64,000 nt of DNA from a bacterium. Its GTDB lineage: Bacteria > UBA8248. Numbering within the stretch: position 1 is the first letter of the stretch; each line of letters opens with the position of its first letter. Positions 2,025 through 10,597 of the stretch are shown piece by piece. The translations under genes and the position numbers were made by a program. The notes beneath the pieces were generated by a model that saw nothing but the letters and a program-made list of their open reading frames with translations, did not search any database and was not told the DNA's origin. The stretch covers positions 2,016,001 through 2,080,000 of the forward strand of contig CBDBEV010000001.1 in the NCBI GenBank assembly GCA_965204535.1, in the 5' to 3' direction.

Positions 2025-2222
2025 GGCGTCACCCCTCCTTTGGTTGGATTCGCGCCCTTCGCCTTTATCCCGGAACGCGGCGGATCATACCACACCCCGC
2101 GGCGTGAGTGTCAAAACCGCCGACGGGTGATGAGGGGAGATTGTTCCGACCGGAAAGGGAATTTCCGTAGGGGTGTCGGTTTTCCCCGAGGAGGGGGAGA
2201 CAGAACGAGCCGCCCGCTTTTC

Positions 2223-3257
2223 TCATGGAGTATCTGCGATTTTCAGGAGATGTTTTCCAATTTGTTTCGCAAGCCTGACCGGAACGGCGTTTCCTATGTG
2301 CTTGGCGATGTGAGTTTTATACCCGAAAAACTCGTATCCGTCTGGAAAAGATTGCAAAGCGGCGGCTTCACGCAGCGATATCGCACGGTCCTGTTCTGGA
2401 TGTCCGTATCTGCCGTTGGATATGCTGTGGCATCGCCCCGTGAGGGCGGGTGCCGGGCTATCCCAGTGCATTCGTCCGTAAACGTCTGTATGACCTTTAT
2501 AGTCCCCTTTGTGACATTCCAGTCTCAGGTGGTCCGGCCATGATCTTCGGTCCCCACCATCATGCGGCGTAGCTCGTAATCGTTTTAGGTTTAATTCTGC
2601 AATGGGAGCGGCGAAATGGTTCAAGATTTCAGGGTGGTGTTCTCCGGCGGCGATTTCAGGAAAATGAGAAATGGCTTGCCGTACTGTCCTGAACGGACGA
2701 TTTTGATTGCCGTATGTCGCATCGGGTAACGAAGATTGTCTATGTCTCGTGGCCAGTAATACAAGACGCCTTCTGTTCTGCGGGACTCCGTAGTGTTTCG
2801 CATCGAGGACATAATAATCGTATCCATAGTCTTTCGCGGTAAGCATCTTGAGAAACCGGCGAAAAGTGCTAAAGCCGCGTACACTCGCAATGCCGGGGAC
2901 ATTTTCTATCAATACAAATCCCGGTAATACTTCTTCAACGAGTCGTGCAAATTTTCCCAGCAGTGTTGCATCATTTCTTTTTGCAGCCCCTTTACGTTGC
3001 GGACTGAATGGTTGACATGGGGCACATCCGGCAAAAAGAACATCGTCATAAGATTCCGATTGGCACTTCAGGTCTAGATCTTTTGGTTTAATCTTTCTAA
3101 TGTCAGCCTCGACAAAACGGACTCCAGGATTGTTGTGTTCATAGGTGTCTTTGCAATGTTTGTCATTGTCAAATCCGGCGATGACCTCAATCCCTGCGTC
3201 GAGCAAACCCCTGGTCAGGCCTCCTGCCCCACAAAAGAAATCGTAGGCTTTAATCAT
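2223..3257 (-). CDS. dcm: DNA (cytosine-5)-methyltransferase
   Basis: Motif I DFFCGAGG, IV APCQPFS, VI ENVPG, VIII QNRRR, IX ISLREAAALQSFP, X IGNAVP. ATG 3257 overlaps the upstream stop (ATGATTAA). Confidence 0.95.
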   Translation of the reverse strand: MIKAYDFFCGAGGLTRGLLDAGIEVIAGFDNDKHCKDTYEHNNPGVRFVEADIRKIKPKDLDLKCQSESYDDVLFAGCAPCQPFSPQRKGAAKRNDATLLGKFARLVEEVLPGFVLIENVPGIASVRGFSTFRRFLKMLTAKDYGYDYYVLDAKHYGVPQNRRRLVLLATRHRQSSLPDATYGNQNRPFRTVRQAISHFPEIAAGEHHPEILNHFAAPIAELNLKRLRATPHDGGDRRSWPDHLRLECHKGDYKGHTDVYGRMHWDSPAPALTGRCHSISNGRYGHPEQDRAISLREAAALQSFPDGYEFFGYKTHIAKHIGNAVPVRLAKQIGKHLLKIADTP

Positions 3258-4359
3258 TATTTTTACTGCGTTCATTTTTGACATTTTCGATAATCTCGTC
3301 ACGCCATGCATCAATATCTCGGTCCGGCAGACCCGGTCGACCAGCGGTTTGTAAATATGCCCACGCAATCAATTCACGGAATGGGCTGTCGAGAGAAGCG
3401 ATTCGAGAAAATTCAGTTTTGATTTTTTCGATGGGAATCAGTTCCAAATCTCTTAGATTAGCTGCCATCGGTGGAATTCGATTCTTCAGACCTGGAAAAG
3501 GGACGATAGTCTCAAAATAACCCTGGGCGAGAGTGCCTGATAAATTGCTTTTTAGTTTATCAATCCTTATGTTTTTCCAGCTAGAGAGTTGCAGGCTATC
3601 ATTGATTGAATGACATCTTGCAACCAGAACGTCGCGGACTTTTGCACTACGACCACAGGAAGATACGAGATCGCATGACGGGGTTAGAACCACTCGAAAT
3701 GCAGCAGGATCTTCATTTGCTCCACCTTCTTGTTTGAAAATGTCGCCCAACCGAATGTCCCTGCTTATTGGTGGATACAGGTACTGTTCCAAACCGGCAA
3801 GATTGGTTCCGTCTGCGGAAATCTCATCCATCTGAGCGGCGAGTCGGCGTCTTCCAGATCGTTTAATCATATCATTGCGTTGTTCAGAATCATCCAAAAC
3901 TTCGAAGGCGTAAGGAGCAACATCCCGCATCGCGCAGGAAAAAGAATGCCTGATATCGTTTTCTGCATTTTTTAGCGCGTTGACATGAGGCAGGAATTCG
4001 TTAATCGCTTTCAAAACCTTTTGCGGGCTCTTTGCTCCCTTCTTGATACTTTTCTCAAATGGATGCGGGTCACACTCATAATCATAAATTTCTTTCACAC
4101 CAGAATATATTATGATTGGGCAGAAATGTTGATTCCAAATAAAGTTGCGAGTTTTTAAGCCTTCGGTTTCTTCGTCTGGAGAAGCGCCCTCGAGCAGGAG
4201 ATCAAGTACTACGATGTCTGGATGGAACGATATAATCTTTTCTTCAGCATTCTTGAATTCCGATACCATGTAGCATACGTTTTTTATTTTCGCTTTAATG
4301 AATCTTAATACAGGTTCTATAGCTTTCTGATCATCTTCTATAAATAGCAACTTTAGCAT
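3250..4359 (-). CDS. Response-regulator receiver domain fused to an uncharacterised C-terminal domain
   Basis: N-terminal LFIEDD, IVVLD(phosphoacceptor)L, IIYSG, IKKG. C-terminal part has GDIF...VLTPSCDL...RIASLDSPFRE...GRPGLP and no recognisable HTH. Confidence 0.8.
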   Translation of the reverse strand: MLKLLFIEDDQKAIEPVLRFIKAKIKNVCYMVSEFKNAEEKIISFHPDIVVLDLLLEGASPDEETEGLKTRNFIWNQHFCPIIIYSGVKEIYDYECDPHPFEKSIKKGAKSPQKVLKAINEFLPHVNALKNAENDIRHSFSCAMRDVAPYAFEVLDDSEQRNDMIKRSGRRRLAAQMDEISADGTNLAGLEQYLYPPISRDIRLGDIFKQEGGANEDPAAFRVVLTPSCDLVSSCGRSAKVRDVLVARCHSINDSLQLSSWKNIRIDKLKSNLSGTLAQGYFETIVPFPGLKNRIPPMAANLRDLELIPIEKIKTEFSRIASLDSPFRELIAWAYLQTAGRPGLPDRDIDAWRDEIIENVKNERSKNND

Positions 4360-4383
4360 GTAACACTCTCTTGTAATTTGCGT

Positions 4384-6543
4384 TCAGCGTTTTTTGCTTA
4401 AAGGCAAATCGAATGCGAATGATGCGCCCCTCTTTGTGTTTCCGTATTCGATCGCCATACGGCCCCCATATGCAGCCACCAATTCCGAAGCTACTGTGAG
4501 TCCCATTCCAATTCCGCCCGGCTTTCTTGTCACACCAGGCCAGAATATTTTCTCTATGTCTTCTTTGTTAATTCCCGGCCCTGTATCGTGAACTGACACA
4601 CGTACGCGTTCCCCGTTGTTTATGGTTGTGAGGCGAAACTCAAGTTTTCTGTTTTTGTCAGGAACATCGCCTAACCAATACACTGCATTTGTCACCAGGT
4701 TCAGGATAATCGCATCGAGTTCTCCTGGGTCAGCAGCCACAGTGGTTTTTGAGTCAGGTACTCGGCATTGAACGTTTTTTCTCTTGATTTCACCCCGGTG
4801 AAGCATCAAACAATTTTTGATTTGATCTTCTAAAACAGAATAACGCCTCCGTCGTCTGAAATTACGGCTTGCCAGGGGTGCGAAGGTGTCCGCAAGGCGC
4901 TCCAATGCATCTACTGCATTTTCAGCGGAGCGGAACTCTTCCTCCAAAAGTTTTTCTTTGAATGGACCAAATCTGTCTTGAATGCATCTCAAAAAACTTC
5001 CGAAGGATATCGTGCGATTCCGAATTTCGTGCACTAGCATTTGAGCGATTGTTCCAATAGTAGCCAGACGACTGTAGTATACAAATCGCTCCTGAATAGC
5101 CTTGCGCGCTGAGTTTAGTGAATTACTGAAAGTGCGGAGCGAGGGAATCACATCTGATGCCTCGGCACCCTCCTCGGAAAGGGCCATGACTTCTTCAGTG
5201 AACTCTTCCGCAGACAATTGTTCGAATAGATCCTCCATCGGTTTTTCGCGATCAGGCTTTATCCGATCTTCATCTCGTTCATTTTCGAGAAGAGCAACGA
5301 CAGATTTCAGAATTTCCTCGAACTCCGCCACTTGAAGGCTCGTAGCCAGACGTTCACGGTCGCTGGTGTCCGCGATTTGTGGATTGTTTTCAGCCGATAT
5401 CGAAACGTAGCCGACAAGTTGGCTCGTACTCAGCCGTGTTCCAACCTTGCTGACGCGCCTGAGATCGAGTCCCAACCAGTCACGTGCATTATCAGATTTG
5501 GGAAGTGTCAGAACACCGTCTCTATAAACGGAGATGCCTTTATGAGCACGAATGGTTTTTCTCACTTGGCTCTTTTGAAACTCGAATCGTTCTGCGATTT
5601 CCTGAGTATCATCGGGAGCAATGTCCCAAGCCCGGATTTCGAAAGTGAACGGTCCACAACTCGTCATTTCCGAAGAAAAATGAAAGCGAGTGCGATCCTG
5701 AATAGCTTCGTAAGTCCGCCTCCAAGGAAGCTTCAATTTTCTGTTTCTTGGGGAACCTCCCGTTATAGGAGTAAATTGATATGTTGCGTTTACATTACCT
5801 ACATTGTCGACATTCCCTTTGATACTGTATTTTGGATTCGACAAAAACTCTGGAGATTCTATTTCTACTTCCTCGGTCAAATTCTCACCGAAACCTGACA
5901 GGAAGATTTTGAAATCGCCAACGGCTGAAAATGGTGATATCAACCGCGCGAGATTTTCTTTCAGGTCGAATACGCGATTCTTATCCCATTGCTCTTTAAG
6001 GCCAAAAATGCCGAGTCGGGTTCCGGATTTTTTGAACGGAGACTTCTCGGGATACTCCCTGCATCCGACGAAGCTATCCGACAGCTCGTTTCCTCCTGAA
6101 ATATCGGACCAGTTCACGTTGACTTCCCAGCAAGGAGCCCTGGGGGCTTTTGTGAGCATGTGAAGGCGCTCCCCGAGACGTGCAACGGAAAGACGCCCGA
6201 GCCCTTTTTCACCGGCAACGCGGCGTTTTTTCTTTCCGCTCTTCACAAATGGGTTTTGTTCTTTGTGAGGAGTTGCAACGAGACACCAAACGTTCTCGAT
6301 AATTTCTTTGGTCATACCATGACCGTCATCTTCGATTTCCAGAAACGTACCTTGAGACGGATCGTCACGGAATCGAAGCCAGACATTTTCCGCAAATGCA
6401 TCGTATGAATTCTTGACAAGTTCGATAACGGCTACAACATCATTTGTTACAAGATCTGCACCCAGAGCCGCGAAGACCCTCGGATGCATCCGAAACGATA
6501 TTTGCTCGAAACCGTTATTTTGTTTAGTCATTTTATTTGCCAT
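4384..6543 (-). CDS. MORC/MutL-like GHKL ATPase fused to a cytoplasmic histidine kinase
   Basis: N-terminal GHKL motifs ELVKNSYDA, EDDGHGM, GEKGLGRLS, SGT. C-terminal H-box LVHEIRN, N-box NLVTNAVYW, G1 HDTGPGI, G2 GIGMGL. No transmembrane segment apparent. Confidence 0.9.
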   Translation of the reverse strand: MANKMTKQNNGFEQISFRMHPRVFAALGADLVTNDVVAVIELVKNSYDAFAENVWLRFRDDPSQGTFLEIEDDGHGMTKEIIENVWCLVATPHKEQNPFVKSGKKKRRVAGEKGLGRLSVARLGERLHMLTKAPRAPCWEVNVNWSDISGGNELSDSFVGCREYPEKSPFKKSGTRLGIFGLKEQWDKNRVFDLKENLARLISPFSAVGDFKIFLSGFGENLTEEVEIESPEFLSNPKYSIKGNVDNVGNVNATYQFTPITGGSPRNRKLKLPWRRTYEAIQDRTRFHFSSEMTSCGPFTFEIRAWDIAPDDTQEIAERFEFQKSQVRKTIRAHKGISVYRDGVLTLPKSDNARDWLGLDLRRVSKVGTRLSTSQLVGYVSISAENNPQIADTSDRERLATSLQVAEFEEILKSVVALLENERDEDRIKPDREKPMEDLFEQLSAEEFTEEVMALSEEGAEASDVIPSLRTFSNSLNSARKAIQERFVYYSRLATIGTIAQMLVHEIRNRTISFGSFLRCIQDRFGPFKEKLLEEEFRSAENAVDALERLADTFAPLASRNFRRRRRYSVLEDQIKNCLMLHRGEIKRKNVQCRVPDSKTTVAADPGELDAIILNLVTNAVYWLGDVPDKNRKLEFRLTTINNGERVRVSVHDTGPGINKEDIEKIFWPGVTRKPGGIGMGLTVASELVAAYGGRMAIEYGNTKRGASFAFDLPLSKKR

Positions 6544-7045
6544 GCAGGTTGACGCTCTCTGTTTCTTTTGTCCTACGAGGACCTTTTAATAGAGGAATTT
6601 GCAGTAGTTCTTGATTCGAGTTCAGAAAATCCGCTGCTTGTCTGGCAATGTATTCTAATGCTTCCGTGCGGTTTGTCCCCGGCCTTCGAAATCCGCATTC
6701 CCAGATAGTCAGAACTCGCCAACCAAGTTTCTGCAACTCGGATACGGCTATTGAATCACGCCTTGCGGTATCTTCGAGTTTTGTTTTCCACCATGCTCTA
6801 CGTGTTCCAGGAATAGAAGAAAGATGACAACCATGATAATGCCAGAAACACCCGTGTATGAATATAACGGAGCGGTATTTTTGGAAAACCATATCGGGTG
6901 TCCCGGGGAGGTCATTACGATGCAGGCGATACCGAAATCCCATAGCGAAGAGACGACGGCGTATCTCTAACTCCACTTTGGTGTTCTTGGCCCGGACCGA
7001 AGACATCATTCGGCTGCGGGTTTCTTTGTTTACGGTATCTACCAT
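6533..7045 (-). CDS. vsr: Very short patch repair endonuclease
   Basis: RSRMMSSVRAKNTKVE, LPGTPD, FIHGCFWHYHGC, GWRVLTIWEC; overlaps the start of the ATPase/kinase gene. Confidence 0.95.
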   Translation of the reverse strand: MVDTVNKETRSRMMSSVRAKNTKVELEIRRRLFAMGFRYRLHRNDLPGTPDMVFQKYRSVIFIHGCFWHYHGCHLSSIPGTRRAWWKTKLEDTARRDSIAVSELQKLGWRVLTIWECGFRRPGTNRTEALEYIARQAADFLNSNQELLQIPLLKGPRRTKETESVNLHGK

Positions 7046-7155
7046 TAGATAGGCTCAACCAGGGCAGATGCTAAAGCCGCCTTGCGTTTCGAGTAATTTC
7101 ACCCCCCAAAATACCTTCTCATCATCCCCCTGTCATCTGGCTAGCTTTACCCCCC

Positions 7156-7833: not shown

Positions 7834-8071
7834 CTATCGTCTCCTTATCTGATAAGAGGCCGCGCCGCGCGCGCCTCCCGTGAACCGAAAAGGTCGTAAC
7901 GGATGGCCCGATTATATGATCGGGAGCGCGAGGAGAGTAGGGGTAGGGGAAGTGTGCCTGAATCTTCGCATAAAGCGGATCGAGCTTGATGGGTATAACA
8001 ATAATGTTATATATTGTATAGTGCTCCAAATCGGTGTCCTTGGCTCACCGGACGAAAATGGCCTAAAAAGG

Positions 8072-8241
8072 CGTCATTCCGGCGAAAGCCGGAATCCATT
8101 TTGGTTTTTGCCTCGTCGCCTGCGGTCTTTCTCGCTGCCCACATCCAGCCTTTTTGTTCTTGCCGCCTACGATCTCGTCCGCCGTATGCACGGTCTTTTC
8201 GGGGGGAAAGAGAATGGATTCCGGCTTTCGCCGGAATGACG
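8072..8241. mobile_element. MITE/REP-like element, 170 bp, with perfect 29-bp terminal inverted repeats
   Basis: CGTCATTCCGGCGAAAGCCGGAATCCATT (8072-8100) is the exact reverse complement of 8213-8241; each arm holds its own ATTCCGGC-GAAA-GCCGGAAT hairpin. Confidence 0.85.
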
Positions 8242-8251
8242 ATCAAAGTCG

Positions 8252-8428
8252 AAGGACAATTACGACCGAGACGCATATCGAGCCGTCTACACTGTGAAAT
8301 TTGAAGATGCCGTATATGTTCTCCACGTCTTCCAAAAGAAATCGAAAAGGGGAATTCGGACGCCACGGCGGGATATGGAGATCATCAAGGCCAATTTCAA
8401 GCGATTGATTGAGCGAATGAAAAGGTAG
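8252..8428 (+). pseudogene. 5'-truncated RelE/ParE (phage Gp49-like) toxin
   Basis: Hand translation: KDNYDRDAYRAVYTVKFEDAVYVLHVFQKKSKRGIRTPRRDMEIIKANFKRLIERMKR*. This is the typical C-terminal half; the N-terminal half is absent and the MITE sits in its place. Confidence 0.8.
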
Positions 8429-8457: not shown

Positions 8458-8793
8458 ATGGATCAAAAAATCATCACGGAAGGAGTAATGAACGTATTCG
8501 AGGATTTGGGGCTTCCCGATGCCGATGAACTGATCCTCAAGGCGGAACTTCTCTCGGAGATTATGGATACCATCGAATCGAGAGGGCTCAAGCAAAAGGA
8601 CCTCATGAAGCATCTCGGCATCAAGCAACCCGAGGCGTCCTATCTCATGAACGGGAAGCTCTCGCGCTTCTCCCGCGAGCGGCTGATCGACTACATGGTC
8701 AAGCTCGGCATGACGGTGGAGTTGCGGGTGAAGAAGCCGAAGAAAGGCGCCCCCCTGAAACCCGGCGCGCTGATATACGCGGGAGCGTCGTAA
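8458..8793 (+). CDS. XRE-family HTH antitoxin (HigA-like)
   Basis: NVFEDLGLPDADELILKAEL...GLKQ...LGIKQPEASYLMNGKLSRFSRERL; lies directly downstream of the toxin remnant; GAGGAG RBS. Confidence 0.9.
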   Translation: MDQKIITEGVMNVFEDLGLPDADELILKAELLSEIMDTIESRGLKQKDLMKHLGIKQPEASYLMNGKLSRFSRERLIDYMVKLGMTVELRVKKPKKGAPLKPGALIYAGAS

Positions 8794-9081: not shown

Positions 9082-10597
9082 GGGGCTGTTGAAAAACCCT
9101 GTTTTGAAGCAGGGGGTATGGCGGCTCACGCGGCTTGGGATAGGAAGCCCAATCGGCGCGTGAGGCCGCGAGGAACGCGCAGACGGCGTCTCCGGGCGGC
9201 GCAGGCCCTCCACAGAGCGAATATATCCGCCGCAACAGCGGCGGCGAGCCGCTTGAGGTTCACCGCAGTCGCCGTCAGGTAGGCCTGGATCCTCATGTTC
9301 GCAAGGCCCCGGCGCACCGCCCGCCCCAGTCCGTGCCGACTCTTCGCTTCGCCGTGGTAGCCCTCCGAACGCGACATGTGGCGGCGCCACAGCCGGCCCT
9401 CCTCCTCCCCCCGGCGCGCGCGGCGACGGCGCGCGCGCAACAGCGCCGGATACTCGTGCGGAATCAGCACCGTCCTGCTCGTGTGCGACTTGGGCAGACA
9501 ATCCGACCTCAGCGCGCAGCCCGCGCAATCGCGCGTCCTCGAACCATAGTAGCGCCCCCGCTCCGTCTCCTTCCGGGGACGCAGCGTCTTGCCGCCCGGA
9601 CACTTCACCACCTTGCGCCGCTCGTCGTAGCGGAACAACTGCAGCGGAACACGGCTCTGGGAAGGCTCCTTCTTCGCCGGTATCAGCGCGGCGACGCCAC
9701 GCCGCTCCAATGCGCCGTACACCTTCGAGTACGCATAGCCCGAATCCGCCGTCACCACCGCGGGCGCGCGACCCGTGAGCTCGCAAACCGCATCCAACTG
9801 CGGCTCCATCATCTCCCGCTCGTTCAACGTCCCCGCCGTCACCTCTACGTCGAGGACAACGCCCCGCTCGTCGTCCACCACCGCGTGGTGCTTGTAGCTC
9901 GGCTCGAACCCCGCCCGAGCGCTCTTGCGCGCCAGGCGCGCGTCGGGGTCCGTTCGGCTCACCGGACCCGAACCCCCGCCACCGCCCTTCTTCCCCGTCT
10001 CATCCTCCGAGTCGTTCTCCCGCACCACCTTCTCCGCGTGGCGCTCCGCCAGACTCTCCCAGCTCACGTCCGCGCGTATCAAAGACGCGTCCATGTGAAC
10101 CACTTCTCCCTTCGCCACCTTCGCCTCCACGCAAGACTGAACCGTGCGCCGAAATATCTCCTTGAATCGCGCCTCCCCCCACCGCTGACGGATACGCGTC
10201 AGGCTCGAATGATCCGGCAACTCCTCGTCCAGCTCGTAACCGATGAACCACCGGATCGCCAGGTTCACCTGCGCCTCGCGAAGCAGATGCCGGTCGTGAA
10301 CGTGGCCCAGCAGAAGACCCGCCAGCATCAACCGCACCACCACTTCCGGGTCGATCCCCGGTCGACCGTTGTCCGCGCAATAGCACTCCGCCACCTCCTC
10401 GCGAAGCCAACTCAAATCCAGTACGCGGTTCACCCGGAACAATATGTAATCTTCGGGAATCAACTGCTCCAGCGAACCGGCCACGAACAATTCCATCTGC
10501 CCGCGCCTCTTGCGGTCCAACATCGGGGAATCTCCCATCTCGGGCGAGGGGGGATAACTCCATACGATCACAAAACCAGGGGTTTTTCAACAGCCCC
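9082..10597 (-). mobile_element. IS1182-family insertion sequence, 1516 bp
   Basis: 18-bp terminal IRs GGGGCTGTTGAAAAACCC (9082-9099) / GGGTTTTTCAACAGCCCC (10580-10597); 5-bp direct target duplication GACAA (9077-9081 and 10598-10602). Confidence 0.92.
9126..10571 (-). CDS. IS1182-family DDE transposase
   Basis: GRPGIDP, LPDHSSLTRIRQR, VHMDAS, SRTDPDA, TADSGY, Cys-rich insert, SEGYHGEAKSRHGL, NLKRL. True start may be the later MLDRK. Confidence 0.93.
   Translation of the reverse strand: MIVWSYPPSPEMGDSPMLDRKRRGQMELFVAGSLEQLIPEDYILFRVNRVLDLSWLREEVAECYCADNGRPGIDPEVVVRLMLAGLLLGHVHDRHLLREAQVNLAIRWFIGYELDEELPDHSSLTRIRQRWGEARFKEIFRRTVQSCVEAKVAKGEVVHMDASLIRADVSWESLAERHAEKVVRENDSEDETGKKGGGGGSGPVSRTDPDARLARKSARAGFEPSYKHHAVVDDERGVVLDVEVTAGTLNEREMMEPQLDAVCELTGRAPAVVTADSGYAYSKVYGALERRGVAALIPAKKEPSQSRVPLQLFRYDERRKVVKCPGGKTLRPRKETERGRYYGSRTRDCAGCALRSDCLPKSHTSRTVLIPHEYPALLRARRRRARRGEEEGRLWRRHMSRSEGYHGEAKSRHGLGRAVRRGLANMRIQAYLTATAVNLKRLAAAVAADIFALWRACAARRRRLRVPRGLTRRLGFLSQAA

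Follow-up and report, generated by a model that had tools for sequence, protein, structure and literature searches.

A bacterial DNA stretch of 64,000 nucleotides (GTDB lineage UBA8248; GenBank assembly GCA_965204535.1, contig CBDBEV010000001.1, positions 2,016,001 to 2,080,000; this whole stretch is called the window, and positions below count from its first letter) carries four minus-strand genes at 2223-7045. They encode Vsr, a paraMORC-type ATPase fused to a histidine kinase, a receiver fused to an output domain, and a C5-cytosine DNA methyltransferase (methylase); all four open reading frames (ORFs) are intact. We found that this cassette is a real, mobile and restriction-less branch of a known class, and that the output domain of its receiver (the tail) is, in its structural model, built like a MazF/CcdB toxin, yet is not a member of the MazF family. 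The class of paraMORC kinase, receiver and methylase is already known. What appears to be new is the model-based fold assignment of the tail and its link to a large stand-alone protein family; neither of these, nor any MazF-fold output in this class, was found in the literature searched, most subscription papers lying beyond its reach. Statements about papers cited here by accession or DOI refer to the parts of those sources that were accessible.

Fold of the receiver tail

The receiver gene and its two domains are placed as follows:

3250..4359, minus strand: receiver::output protein of 369 amino acids (REC domain, long helical linker 111-178, MazF/CcdB-fold domain); AlphaFold2 model with a predicted local distance difference test score (pLDDT) of 83.6
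3985..4359, minus strand: REC domain, residues 1-125, with E8-D9, D53, S86 and K107; VIA-align Z 15.7 to solved receiver domains
3334..3762, minus strand: MazF/CcdB/Kid-fold output domain, approximately residues 200-342, candidate effector; model pLDDT 93.7, Foldseek and VIA-align

Pfam recognised Response_reg in the receiver weakly (E 0.009), but the fold was clear (VIA-align Z 15.7), and D53 and K107 were conserved in 76/76 and 75/76 homologue rows. These rows, like those for the other genes below, are full-length homologues from which length filters had dropped truncated or split entries (70 rows for the kinase, 76 for the receiver, 73 for the methylase and 46 for Vsr). The AlphaFold2 model separates the REC domain, through the long helical linker (111-178), from a beta-rich domain. 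A fold search with the whole receiver returned REC domains only. When residues 181-362 were folded alone (pLDDT 93.7), 29 of the 30 Foldseek matches listed were MazF-family structures and one was CptN, a related toxin (best E 3e-4). VIA-align against 48,161 representative chains placed MazF, CcdB, Kid and CptN in the top 12 positions (Z 10.3-7.2), with the first unrelated chain at 4.3; the solved members of these four families are toxins. The tail superposed on MazF-mt3 with Z 10.3 and a root mean square deviation of 2.8 over 103 residues, and on CcdB with Z 9.4 and 2.4 over 94. The fold covers the whole domain, with about 100 of 95-120 target residues aligned at Z 8-10.6 and Foldseek template modelling (TM) scores, normalised to the target, of 0.55-0.68. 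Fold search alone named the tail; Pfam, PDB-sequence and ESM Atlas searches did not. Thus the C-terminal effector, which a sequence-only reading of this DNA had postulated and left unnamed, now has a predicted MazF/CcdB fold.

The tail nevertheless departs from MazF in its conserved residues. MazF cleavage requires an arginine (R25/R29) and a threonine (T48/T52) (PMC10893535), and neither has a conserved counterpart here: position 220 is Ser or Ala and position 250 is variable, as far as weak profile alignments (probability <4%) allow these positions to be mapped onto MazF. The Pfam model PF02452 (PemK) matched none of 78 tail domain sequences. Because the catalytic Arg/Thr positions are not conserved and PF02452 does not match, we set the tail outside the MazF family. 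Profile-profile comparison with PemK proteins of related genomes was likewise not significant (probability <1%, and 3% for the stand-alone family described below). The conserved residues of the tail are G205-D206, P227-S228-C229-D230 and R341-x-G343-x-P345, and the motifs kept from close to distant homologues are GD (205-206), P-S/A-C-D (227-230) and R-x-G-x-P (341-345). R222 occurs in 66/76 close homologues and is replaced by Trp or Phe in distant ones; conservation of C249, too, is limited to close homologues. No helix-turn-helix was seen in the receiver or tail models. We found no gene for a cognate antitoxin, there being no small ORF upstream; the tail domain is fused to the receiver.

Searches returned 823 receiver homologues at 90% clustering and 1,126 representatives matching the tail profile at 50% clustering. 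The tail also has stand-alone homologues of about 172 amino acids (3,307 matches; hhalign probability 95.5), which lack the receiver and share C229, D230 and R341. Their motif reads QGD...SQSCDL...CP...RxGLP (L176:998-2747 on G238:C114; L179-L197). In 8/18 loci a TIGR04255-like gene precedes the stand-alone gene, usually separated from it by a gene for 100-145 amino acids; at six other loci two unlabelled genes of similar size lie upstream. Since the domain is found alone in >3,300 proteins, often as the last gene of a three-gene operon, we regard it as a modular unit; together with the TIGR04255 gene and the small gene it looks like an undescribed three-part toxin module. No paper with the term TIGR04255 was found in the literature searched. 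Two receivers of 630 amino acids beside more distant kinases show a similar tail motif by eye and with weak scores, so that a MazF fold for the whole class is a lead only. Response_reg_2 (PF19192) matched neither the receiver nor any other scanned protein, the long L169 and L170 receivers included, though the presence of that model in the library was unconfirmed.

A kinase, receiver and methylase core

We compared homologous loci from GTDB (79 loci returned of 92 stretches) and from metagenomes (80 of 325). The kinase gene lay directly upstream of the receiver gene in 77/77 GTDB and 59/59 metagenome loci with room for it. A C5 methylase was near in 77/79 and 77/80 loci, or in 62/63 and 19/19 when only loci with full context were counted; one exception, L047:5768-9134, has an intact kinase and receiver and no C5 methylase detected within 8 kb on either side. 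Vsr was near the receiver in 50/79 GTDB and 43/80 metagenome loci, and an HNH/Mrr-like nuclease in 7/79 and 3/80 (with six seeds from these loci). Extra methylase or Vsr copies aside, no other neighbour family was shared by more than 6 loci. From these counts the core consists of kinase, receiver and methylase; Vsr is optional, and a restriction enzyme is not conserved. Because HNH/Mrr nucleases are rare and no other family is shared, no conserved nuclease is left as effector, Vsr excepted, which is itself absent from 29/79 loci.

The gene set is scattered over Nitrospirota, Planctomycetota, Chloroflexota, Spirochaetota, Acidobacteriota, Pseudomonadota and other phyla. The tail profile was found in 1/22 other genomes of the same genus and in 8/401 genomes overall, the latter including the genome under study and two stand-alone homologues; both sets are samples with some incomplete genomes. 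This rare presence within the genus, the empty insertion site described below and the spread over many phyla fit a mobile defence gene set. Cassette versions occur on conjugative or mobilisable plasmids, and distant ones that keep the layout are found on plasmids of Acaryochloris, Bacillus, Campylobacter and Enterobacter. On the Campylobacter jejuni plasmid CP132133.1 (L111), a distant kinase-receiver-methylase version has the same tail motifs; related kinases occur in 41 Campylobacter plasmid records. Among viral contigs, the kinase alone gave no match and the receiver alignment one locus.

Among 67 scanned proteins from immediate neighbours were type I and type III restriction-modification (R-M), Fic, HNH, DUF499, DUF1156 and integrase genes, in a scan that had no background rate and therefore gives no formal test of enrichment. 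The neighbourhood comparison called for by the sequence-only reading thus returned the co-occurrence and the defence-rich context, but not a fixed order of four genes: we counted 13 arrangements, and Vsr is frequently missing.

Kinase and methylase

The remaining genes, with the two modules of the kinase, are as follows:

6533..7045, minus strand: Vsr T:G very-short-patch repair endonuclease, 170 amino acids, accessory; PF03852 E 1e-30, TIGR00632 above cut-off
4384..6543, minus strand: paraMORC-type GHKL ATPase with S5-like region, fused to a DHp-CA histidine kinase, 719 amino acids; PF13589 at 37-149, PF02518 at 605-716
5254..6489, minus strand: N-terminal GHKL and S5-like module, approximately residues 19-430, with E41 and N45 catalytic, likely a sensor clamp; NF050001 on residues 19-218 only
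4396..5112, minus strand: kinase core, residues 478-716, with H-box H505-E506, N619, D653-x-G655-x-G657 and GxGxGL box; profile match and conservation
2223..3257, minus strand: C5-cytosine DNA methyltransferase, 344 amino acids (Pro80-Cys81); PF00145 E 2e-58, PADLOC MTase_II E 2e-91

The methylase is taken to start at its ATG, the TTG at 3368 given by the ORF finder reaching 37 codons into the receiver gene. In the kinase, Pfam identified HATPase_c_3 (PF13589, E 8e-19) and HATPase_c (PF02518, E 4e-25); residues 481-716 resemble FixL/ZraS kinases, and no long hydrophobic stretch was evident on inspection of the sequence, no membrane predictor having been applied. The S5 label of the N-terminal module is taken from PMC2292703 and not from a fold comparison. 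The catalytic motifs had been described as intact, and the alignments show them to be near-invariant: E41, N45, D72, G74, G76, H505, E506, N619, D653 and G655 occur in 70/70 kinase rows, the methylase Pro-Cys and Glu-Asn motifs in 73/73, and E25, D51 and H69 of Vsr in 46/46. HEF_HK (PF19191) did not match the kinase at E 0.1, although the model is present in the library, where it matched the L170 kinase weakly.

The kinase head is related to the N-termini of endonucleases from BbrUII/HgiDII-family loci, with which it could be aligned at 17-22% identity. NF050001 gave 78.6 bits against a cut-off of 550 and covered residues 19-218 only, so there is no full-length match including the C-terminal endonuclease. 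We rejected an origin of the kinase by recent exchange of the HgiDII endonuclease domain, as the kinase heads form a clade of their own (FastTree) at this low identity. The methylase falls in or beside a clade of methylases from BbrUII/HgiDII-family loci (40-42% identity) in a quick version of the tree; M.HgiDII itself stood outside this comparison. Target-region residues, however, differ. M.HgiDII recognises GTCGAC (PMC5867850), a word found 74 times in the cassettes against 108 expected from synonymous-codon shuffles (observed/expected 0.69), which is mid-range among palindromes; in the same shuffles TA-containing words were lowest. Site avoidance in the cassettes gave no clear methylase target, also when they were split by methylase clade.

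Across 62 loci, pairwise identities of kinase and receiver were correlated with rho 0.79 and those of kinase and methylase with rho 0.37, values that come from related loci and do not count as independent tests. Along the kinase tree the methylase label switches four times, with well-supported branches forcing three of the switches, and each switch leads to another C5 methylase; a more distant version, L148, has an adenine-type methylase. The swapped methylases have visibly different target regions, yet the largest swapped group (group B, 11 members) shows no fixed difference in any kinase column. Because the kinase has changed its methylase partner at least three times, what it watches is likely the methylase and not a DNA sequence. 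As judged from these alignments, a sensor that monitors the methylase or the state of host DNA fits better than a reader of a matched sequence. The suggestion of the sequence-only reading that the MORC module senses unmethylated DNA is weakened by the swaps without a fixed kinase change and by the fact that methylated phages are unprotected in the Ambrosia system (10.1101/2025.09.30.679545), whereas its other suggestion, sensing of an altered methylase, fits better.

Some relatives carry further genes beside such kinases. On a Pseudanabaena plasmid (L168:5010-9786) a related kinase is followed by a gene for a hypothetical protein of 226 amino acids and then by a metallo-beta-lactamase-fold hydrolase gene interrupted by an insertion sequence, which suggests other outputs for the same kinase type. 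Six Chloroflexota cassettes hold an extra protein of 670-820 amino acids with a faint GHKL match (PF13589 E 0.028), encoded downstream of the methylase in L020, L022, L034 and L042 and upstream in L032 and L038; it is possibly a second MORC-type partner. In the genome under study, outside the window (G000:C2, positions ~1712815 and 2522227-2527247), there are a second paraMORC-like GHKL gene and a separate C5 methylase about 4 kb from a Vsr gene.

The insert and its surroundings

The cassette forms a discrete insert:

2216..7149, no strand assigned: inserted cassette, 4,934 bp, 46.5% GC; empty site in G026

The four genes are co-oriented; the Vsr and kinase genes overlap by 11 bp, the receiver and methylase genes by 8 bp, and 24 bp separate kinase from receiver, exactly as had been noted from the letters alone. 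The description of an AT-richer insert between metabolic genes also holds: GC content is 46.5% in the cassette, 60.5% in the genome and 62-69% in the flanking genes, which are an RraA-like gene on one side and cupin and cyclase genes on the other. A genome of the same genus (G026) matches at 95-96% on both sides and has, in place of 2216-7149, about 243 bp of different sequence, and in genome G023 a cassette with 72% nucleotide identity lies next to the same cupin gene. A search of the insert ends for direct or inverted terminal repeats found none. The claimed lack of a restriction enzyme was borne out by the ORFs and a defence-model scan of the insert, and none is conserved across the homologous loci. 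A promoter scan of the cassette found 11 sites, compared with 5.9 +/- 2.6 in shuffles, and its result was set aside.

A public contig (run X1), which may be the source sample, spans the whole stretch with 0 differences, and run X4, from another study, holds a diverged cassette copy with the same gene order on one contig. In run X3, contigs end at ~2785 and at 6754-6783 (2784-6783 in window positions), with a loose end at 6754 and no joint seen across. Depth there was 28 inside the break points and 105 and 165 on the flanking contigs, contig depth being no measure of a share of cells. The breaks may reflect co-occurring variants without, or altered in, the kinase-receiver part.

Beyond the insert, a Gp49/DUF891 (RelE/HigB-like) toxin gene is represented by a C-terminal fragment of 53 codons at 8267-8428 (E 4e-12). 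A high-copy repeat at ~8070-8247 occupies the expected start of that gene, and an intact HTH_37 antitoxin-like gene follows the fragment at 8458-8793. A transposase with DUF772 and DDE_Tnp_1_6 domains at 9126-10571 is absent from the same site in G026.

Discussion

We propose that the cassette defends against phage with a MazF/CcdB-fold toxin gated by a phosphorelay, in place of a restriction enzyme, and with the kinase watching the methylase. We give this proposal somewhat less than an even chance; its gene content and fold come from the analysis above, and every step beyond them is an inference. In their established family roles, the methylase would write 5-methylcytosine on host DNA and Vsr would mend the resulting T:G mismatches, an optional housekeeping function. 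The ATPase head might act as a DNA clamp that monitors the methylase without reading sequence itself; the states sensed could be a methylase engaged on much unmethylated DNA, a trapped one, or one blocked by a phage inhibitor. Such a disturbance would alter autophosphorylation at H505 and phosphate transfer to D53. The phosphorylation state of the receiver could then control dimerisation of the MazF-fold tail, the REC domain playing the part of an antitoxin, and we assume that phosphorylation switches the tail on. The active tail would halt growth of the infected cell by a chemistry other than RNA cleavage by the MazF Arg/Thr pair, perhaps through the invariant Cys229-Asp230 and Arg341, or through CcdB-like protein binding. 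The relay to a C-terminal effector, as put forward from sequence, remains plausible in this form, and the similar Ambrosia system requires its phospho-Asp.

A broader version of this proposal is doubtful. It would make the cassette a guard-type system in which a MutL/MORC-like clamp watches the DNA methyltransferase of its own cell and, on disturbance by a phage, phosphate passes to a toxin fused to the receiver; this toxin would belong to a new superfamily with the MazF/CcdB fold and a Cys-Asp...Arg site in place of MazF chemistry. The whole paraMORC-kinase class (the long receivers and perhaps AbrC) would also have this domain as its hidden output, and thousands of unexplained TIGR04255 three-gene operons would have it as their toxin.

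Several points weigh against a toxin gated in this way. A common fold by itself shows no function, and the MazF catalytic residues and the PF02452 match are missing. L047 keeps kinase and receiver without a detected methylase, and the correlations across loci are not independent. The swapped methylases may all share one target site, which would remove the argument against a reader of sequence. In Ambrosia, a separate HNH nuclease is required, the host suffers no toxicity during defence, and the authors read the receiver as a transcription regulator of the wHTH (winged helix-turn-helix) type (10.1101/2025.09.30.679545); this weight holds as far as the two systems are homologous, and they were compared by description, not sequence.

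The relay and the toxic tail could be the same and the trigger different, with the ATPase head, alone or via the methylase target domain, detecting unmethylated sites so that methylated phage escape. The near-obligate C5 methylase (62/63 and 19/19 loci with full context) speaks for this, as do the shared clade with methylases of BbrUII/HgiDII-family loci, whose endonucleases bear a related GHKL head, and the fact that the kinase-receiver pair occupies the place of the endonuclease gene in those loci. However, at least three methylase swaps with visibly different target regions left no kinase column fixed differently in group B, no site is clearly avoided in the cassettes, and Ambrosia is not blocked by phage methylation (10.1101/2025.09.30.679545). 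We consider this trigger unlikely.

Rather unlikely, too, is a regulatory output, in which the tail would be a dimerisation or nucleic-acid-binding module and the relay would regulate the methylase and nearby restriction genes. The absent MazF catalytic motif would be explained, restriction genes are frequent though variable neighbours, signalling that controls R-M systems has been proposed (PMC8011034), and Ambrosia is induced by infection, depends on its HNH nuclease and is non-toxic to the host (10.1101/2025.09.30.679545). But the model contains no helix-turn-helix, most loci, the present one included, have no nuclease to regulate, and the invariant C229, D230 and R341, which also occur in homologues without a receiver, resemble a scaffold less than they do an active or binding site.

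A selfish addiction module, whose relay would fire when the methylase is lost or diluted and kill cells that have shed the cassette, with no real benefit against phage, is improbable. It would suit the conjugative or mobilisable plasmids, the patchy distribution and the role of CcdB, Kid and PemK as plasmid addiction toxins, but the neighbours are rich in defence genes, Ambrosia is anti-phage, and L047 retains kinase and receiver without the methylase. Chance linkage of an orphan methylase-Vsr pair to an unrelated two-component system, to which variable gene order and the exchangeable methylase might point, is very improbable and already largely refuted, as 77/79 and 77/80 loci from many phyla keep a methylase, whose only replacements are other methylases, and overlapping reading frames suggest translational coupling.

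Returning to the phosphorelay-gated toxin, the fold matters as the class is widespread and no output has been identified so far where a nuclease is absent. The MazF/CcdB fold names a candidate effector and three residues (C229, D230 and R341), and the working of methylase cassettes that lack a restriction enzyme can be put to a direct test in a minimal form of three genes. If the proposal is true, a toxin-antitoxin fold would be under His-Asp phosphorylation control instead of that of an antitoxin, the class would be tied to a large unannotated stand-alone family, and the wHTH reading of the Ambrosia receiver would be worth re-examining.

Comparison with known systems

The class has been known in silico since 2021, when kinases with HATPase_c_3, HEF_HK and HATPase_c were reported beside Response_reg_2 receivers, C5 methylases and Vsr, with links to paraMORC ATPases and a proposed role of this signalling in the control of R-M systems (Bellieny-Rabelo, Pretorius and Moleleki; PMC8011034). 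Our cassette shares the HATPase_c_3, His-box and HATPase_c kinase, the adjacent receiver, the nearby C5 methylase and often Vsr. It differs in its receiver of 369 amino acids with a near-canonical REC domain, the query protein there having 600 amino acids; the accessible text of that paper gives no fold or function for the receiver output region. The cassette is not described in the accessible parts of PMC12137116, PMC13092281, PMC11090510 and PMC7159879; a figure legend in PMC13092281 names HATPase and REC among predicted, unvalidated systems.

The sequence-only reading knew of no experimental mechanism for such an architecture, and this no longer holds. In Pseudomonas aeruginosa, Ambrosia (AbrR-AbrA-AbrB-AbrC-AbrD) has been validated as an anti-phage system (van den Berg et al., bioRxiv 10.1101/2025.09.30.679545), in which all parts, including the phospho-Asp and the methylase, are required for defence; it is induced on infection, and methylated phages are not protected from it. 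By architecture only, it resembles the cassette in combining a methylase, a HATPase/kinase and a receiver with a conserved phospho-Asp. The XRE regulator AbrR, the N6-adenine methylase AbrA, the HNH nuclease AbrD and the receiver output described as wHTH belong to Ambrosia alone, whereas the cassette has a C5 methylase, Vsr, no regulator, no HNH nuclease and a predicted MazF-fold output; no ORF for an XRE regulator lies in the insert, and none is conserved among neighbours.

With MazF, PemK, Kid and CcdB the cassette shares the predicted fold of receiver residues 200-342. Identity is 8-18%, there is a helical insertion, the Arg-Pro / Pro-x-Thr catalytic motif is missing, and the tail is fused to a receiver instead of being paired with an antitoxin. 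CcdB, Kid and PemK act as plasmid addiction toxins. Detocs is a defensive two-component relay in which a kinase, through a receiver, gates a toxic effector fused to that receiver; it is not known to have a MORC-type ATPase as sensor or to involve a methylase.

The BbrUII/HgiDII-family type II R-M systems and the paraMORC R-M operons (Iyer, Abhiman and Aravind 2008; PMC2292703) share with the cassette the GHKL and S5 head, related C5 methylases and a Vsr neighbour; the word 'receiver' is absent from the accessible main text of PMC2292703. They differ in what follows the head, which is a nuclease in the BbrUII/HgiDII family and a kinase in the cassette described here.

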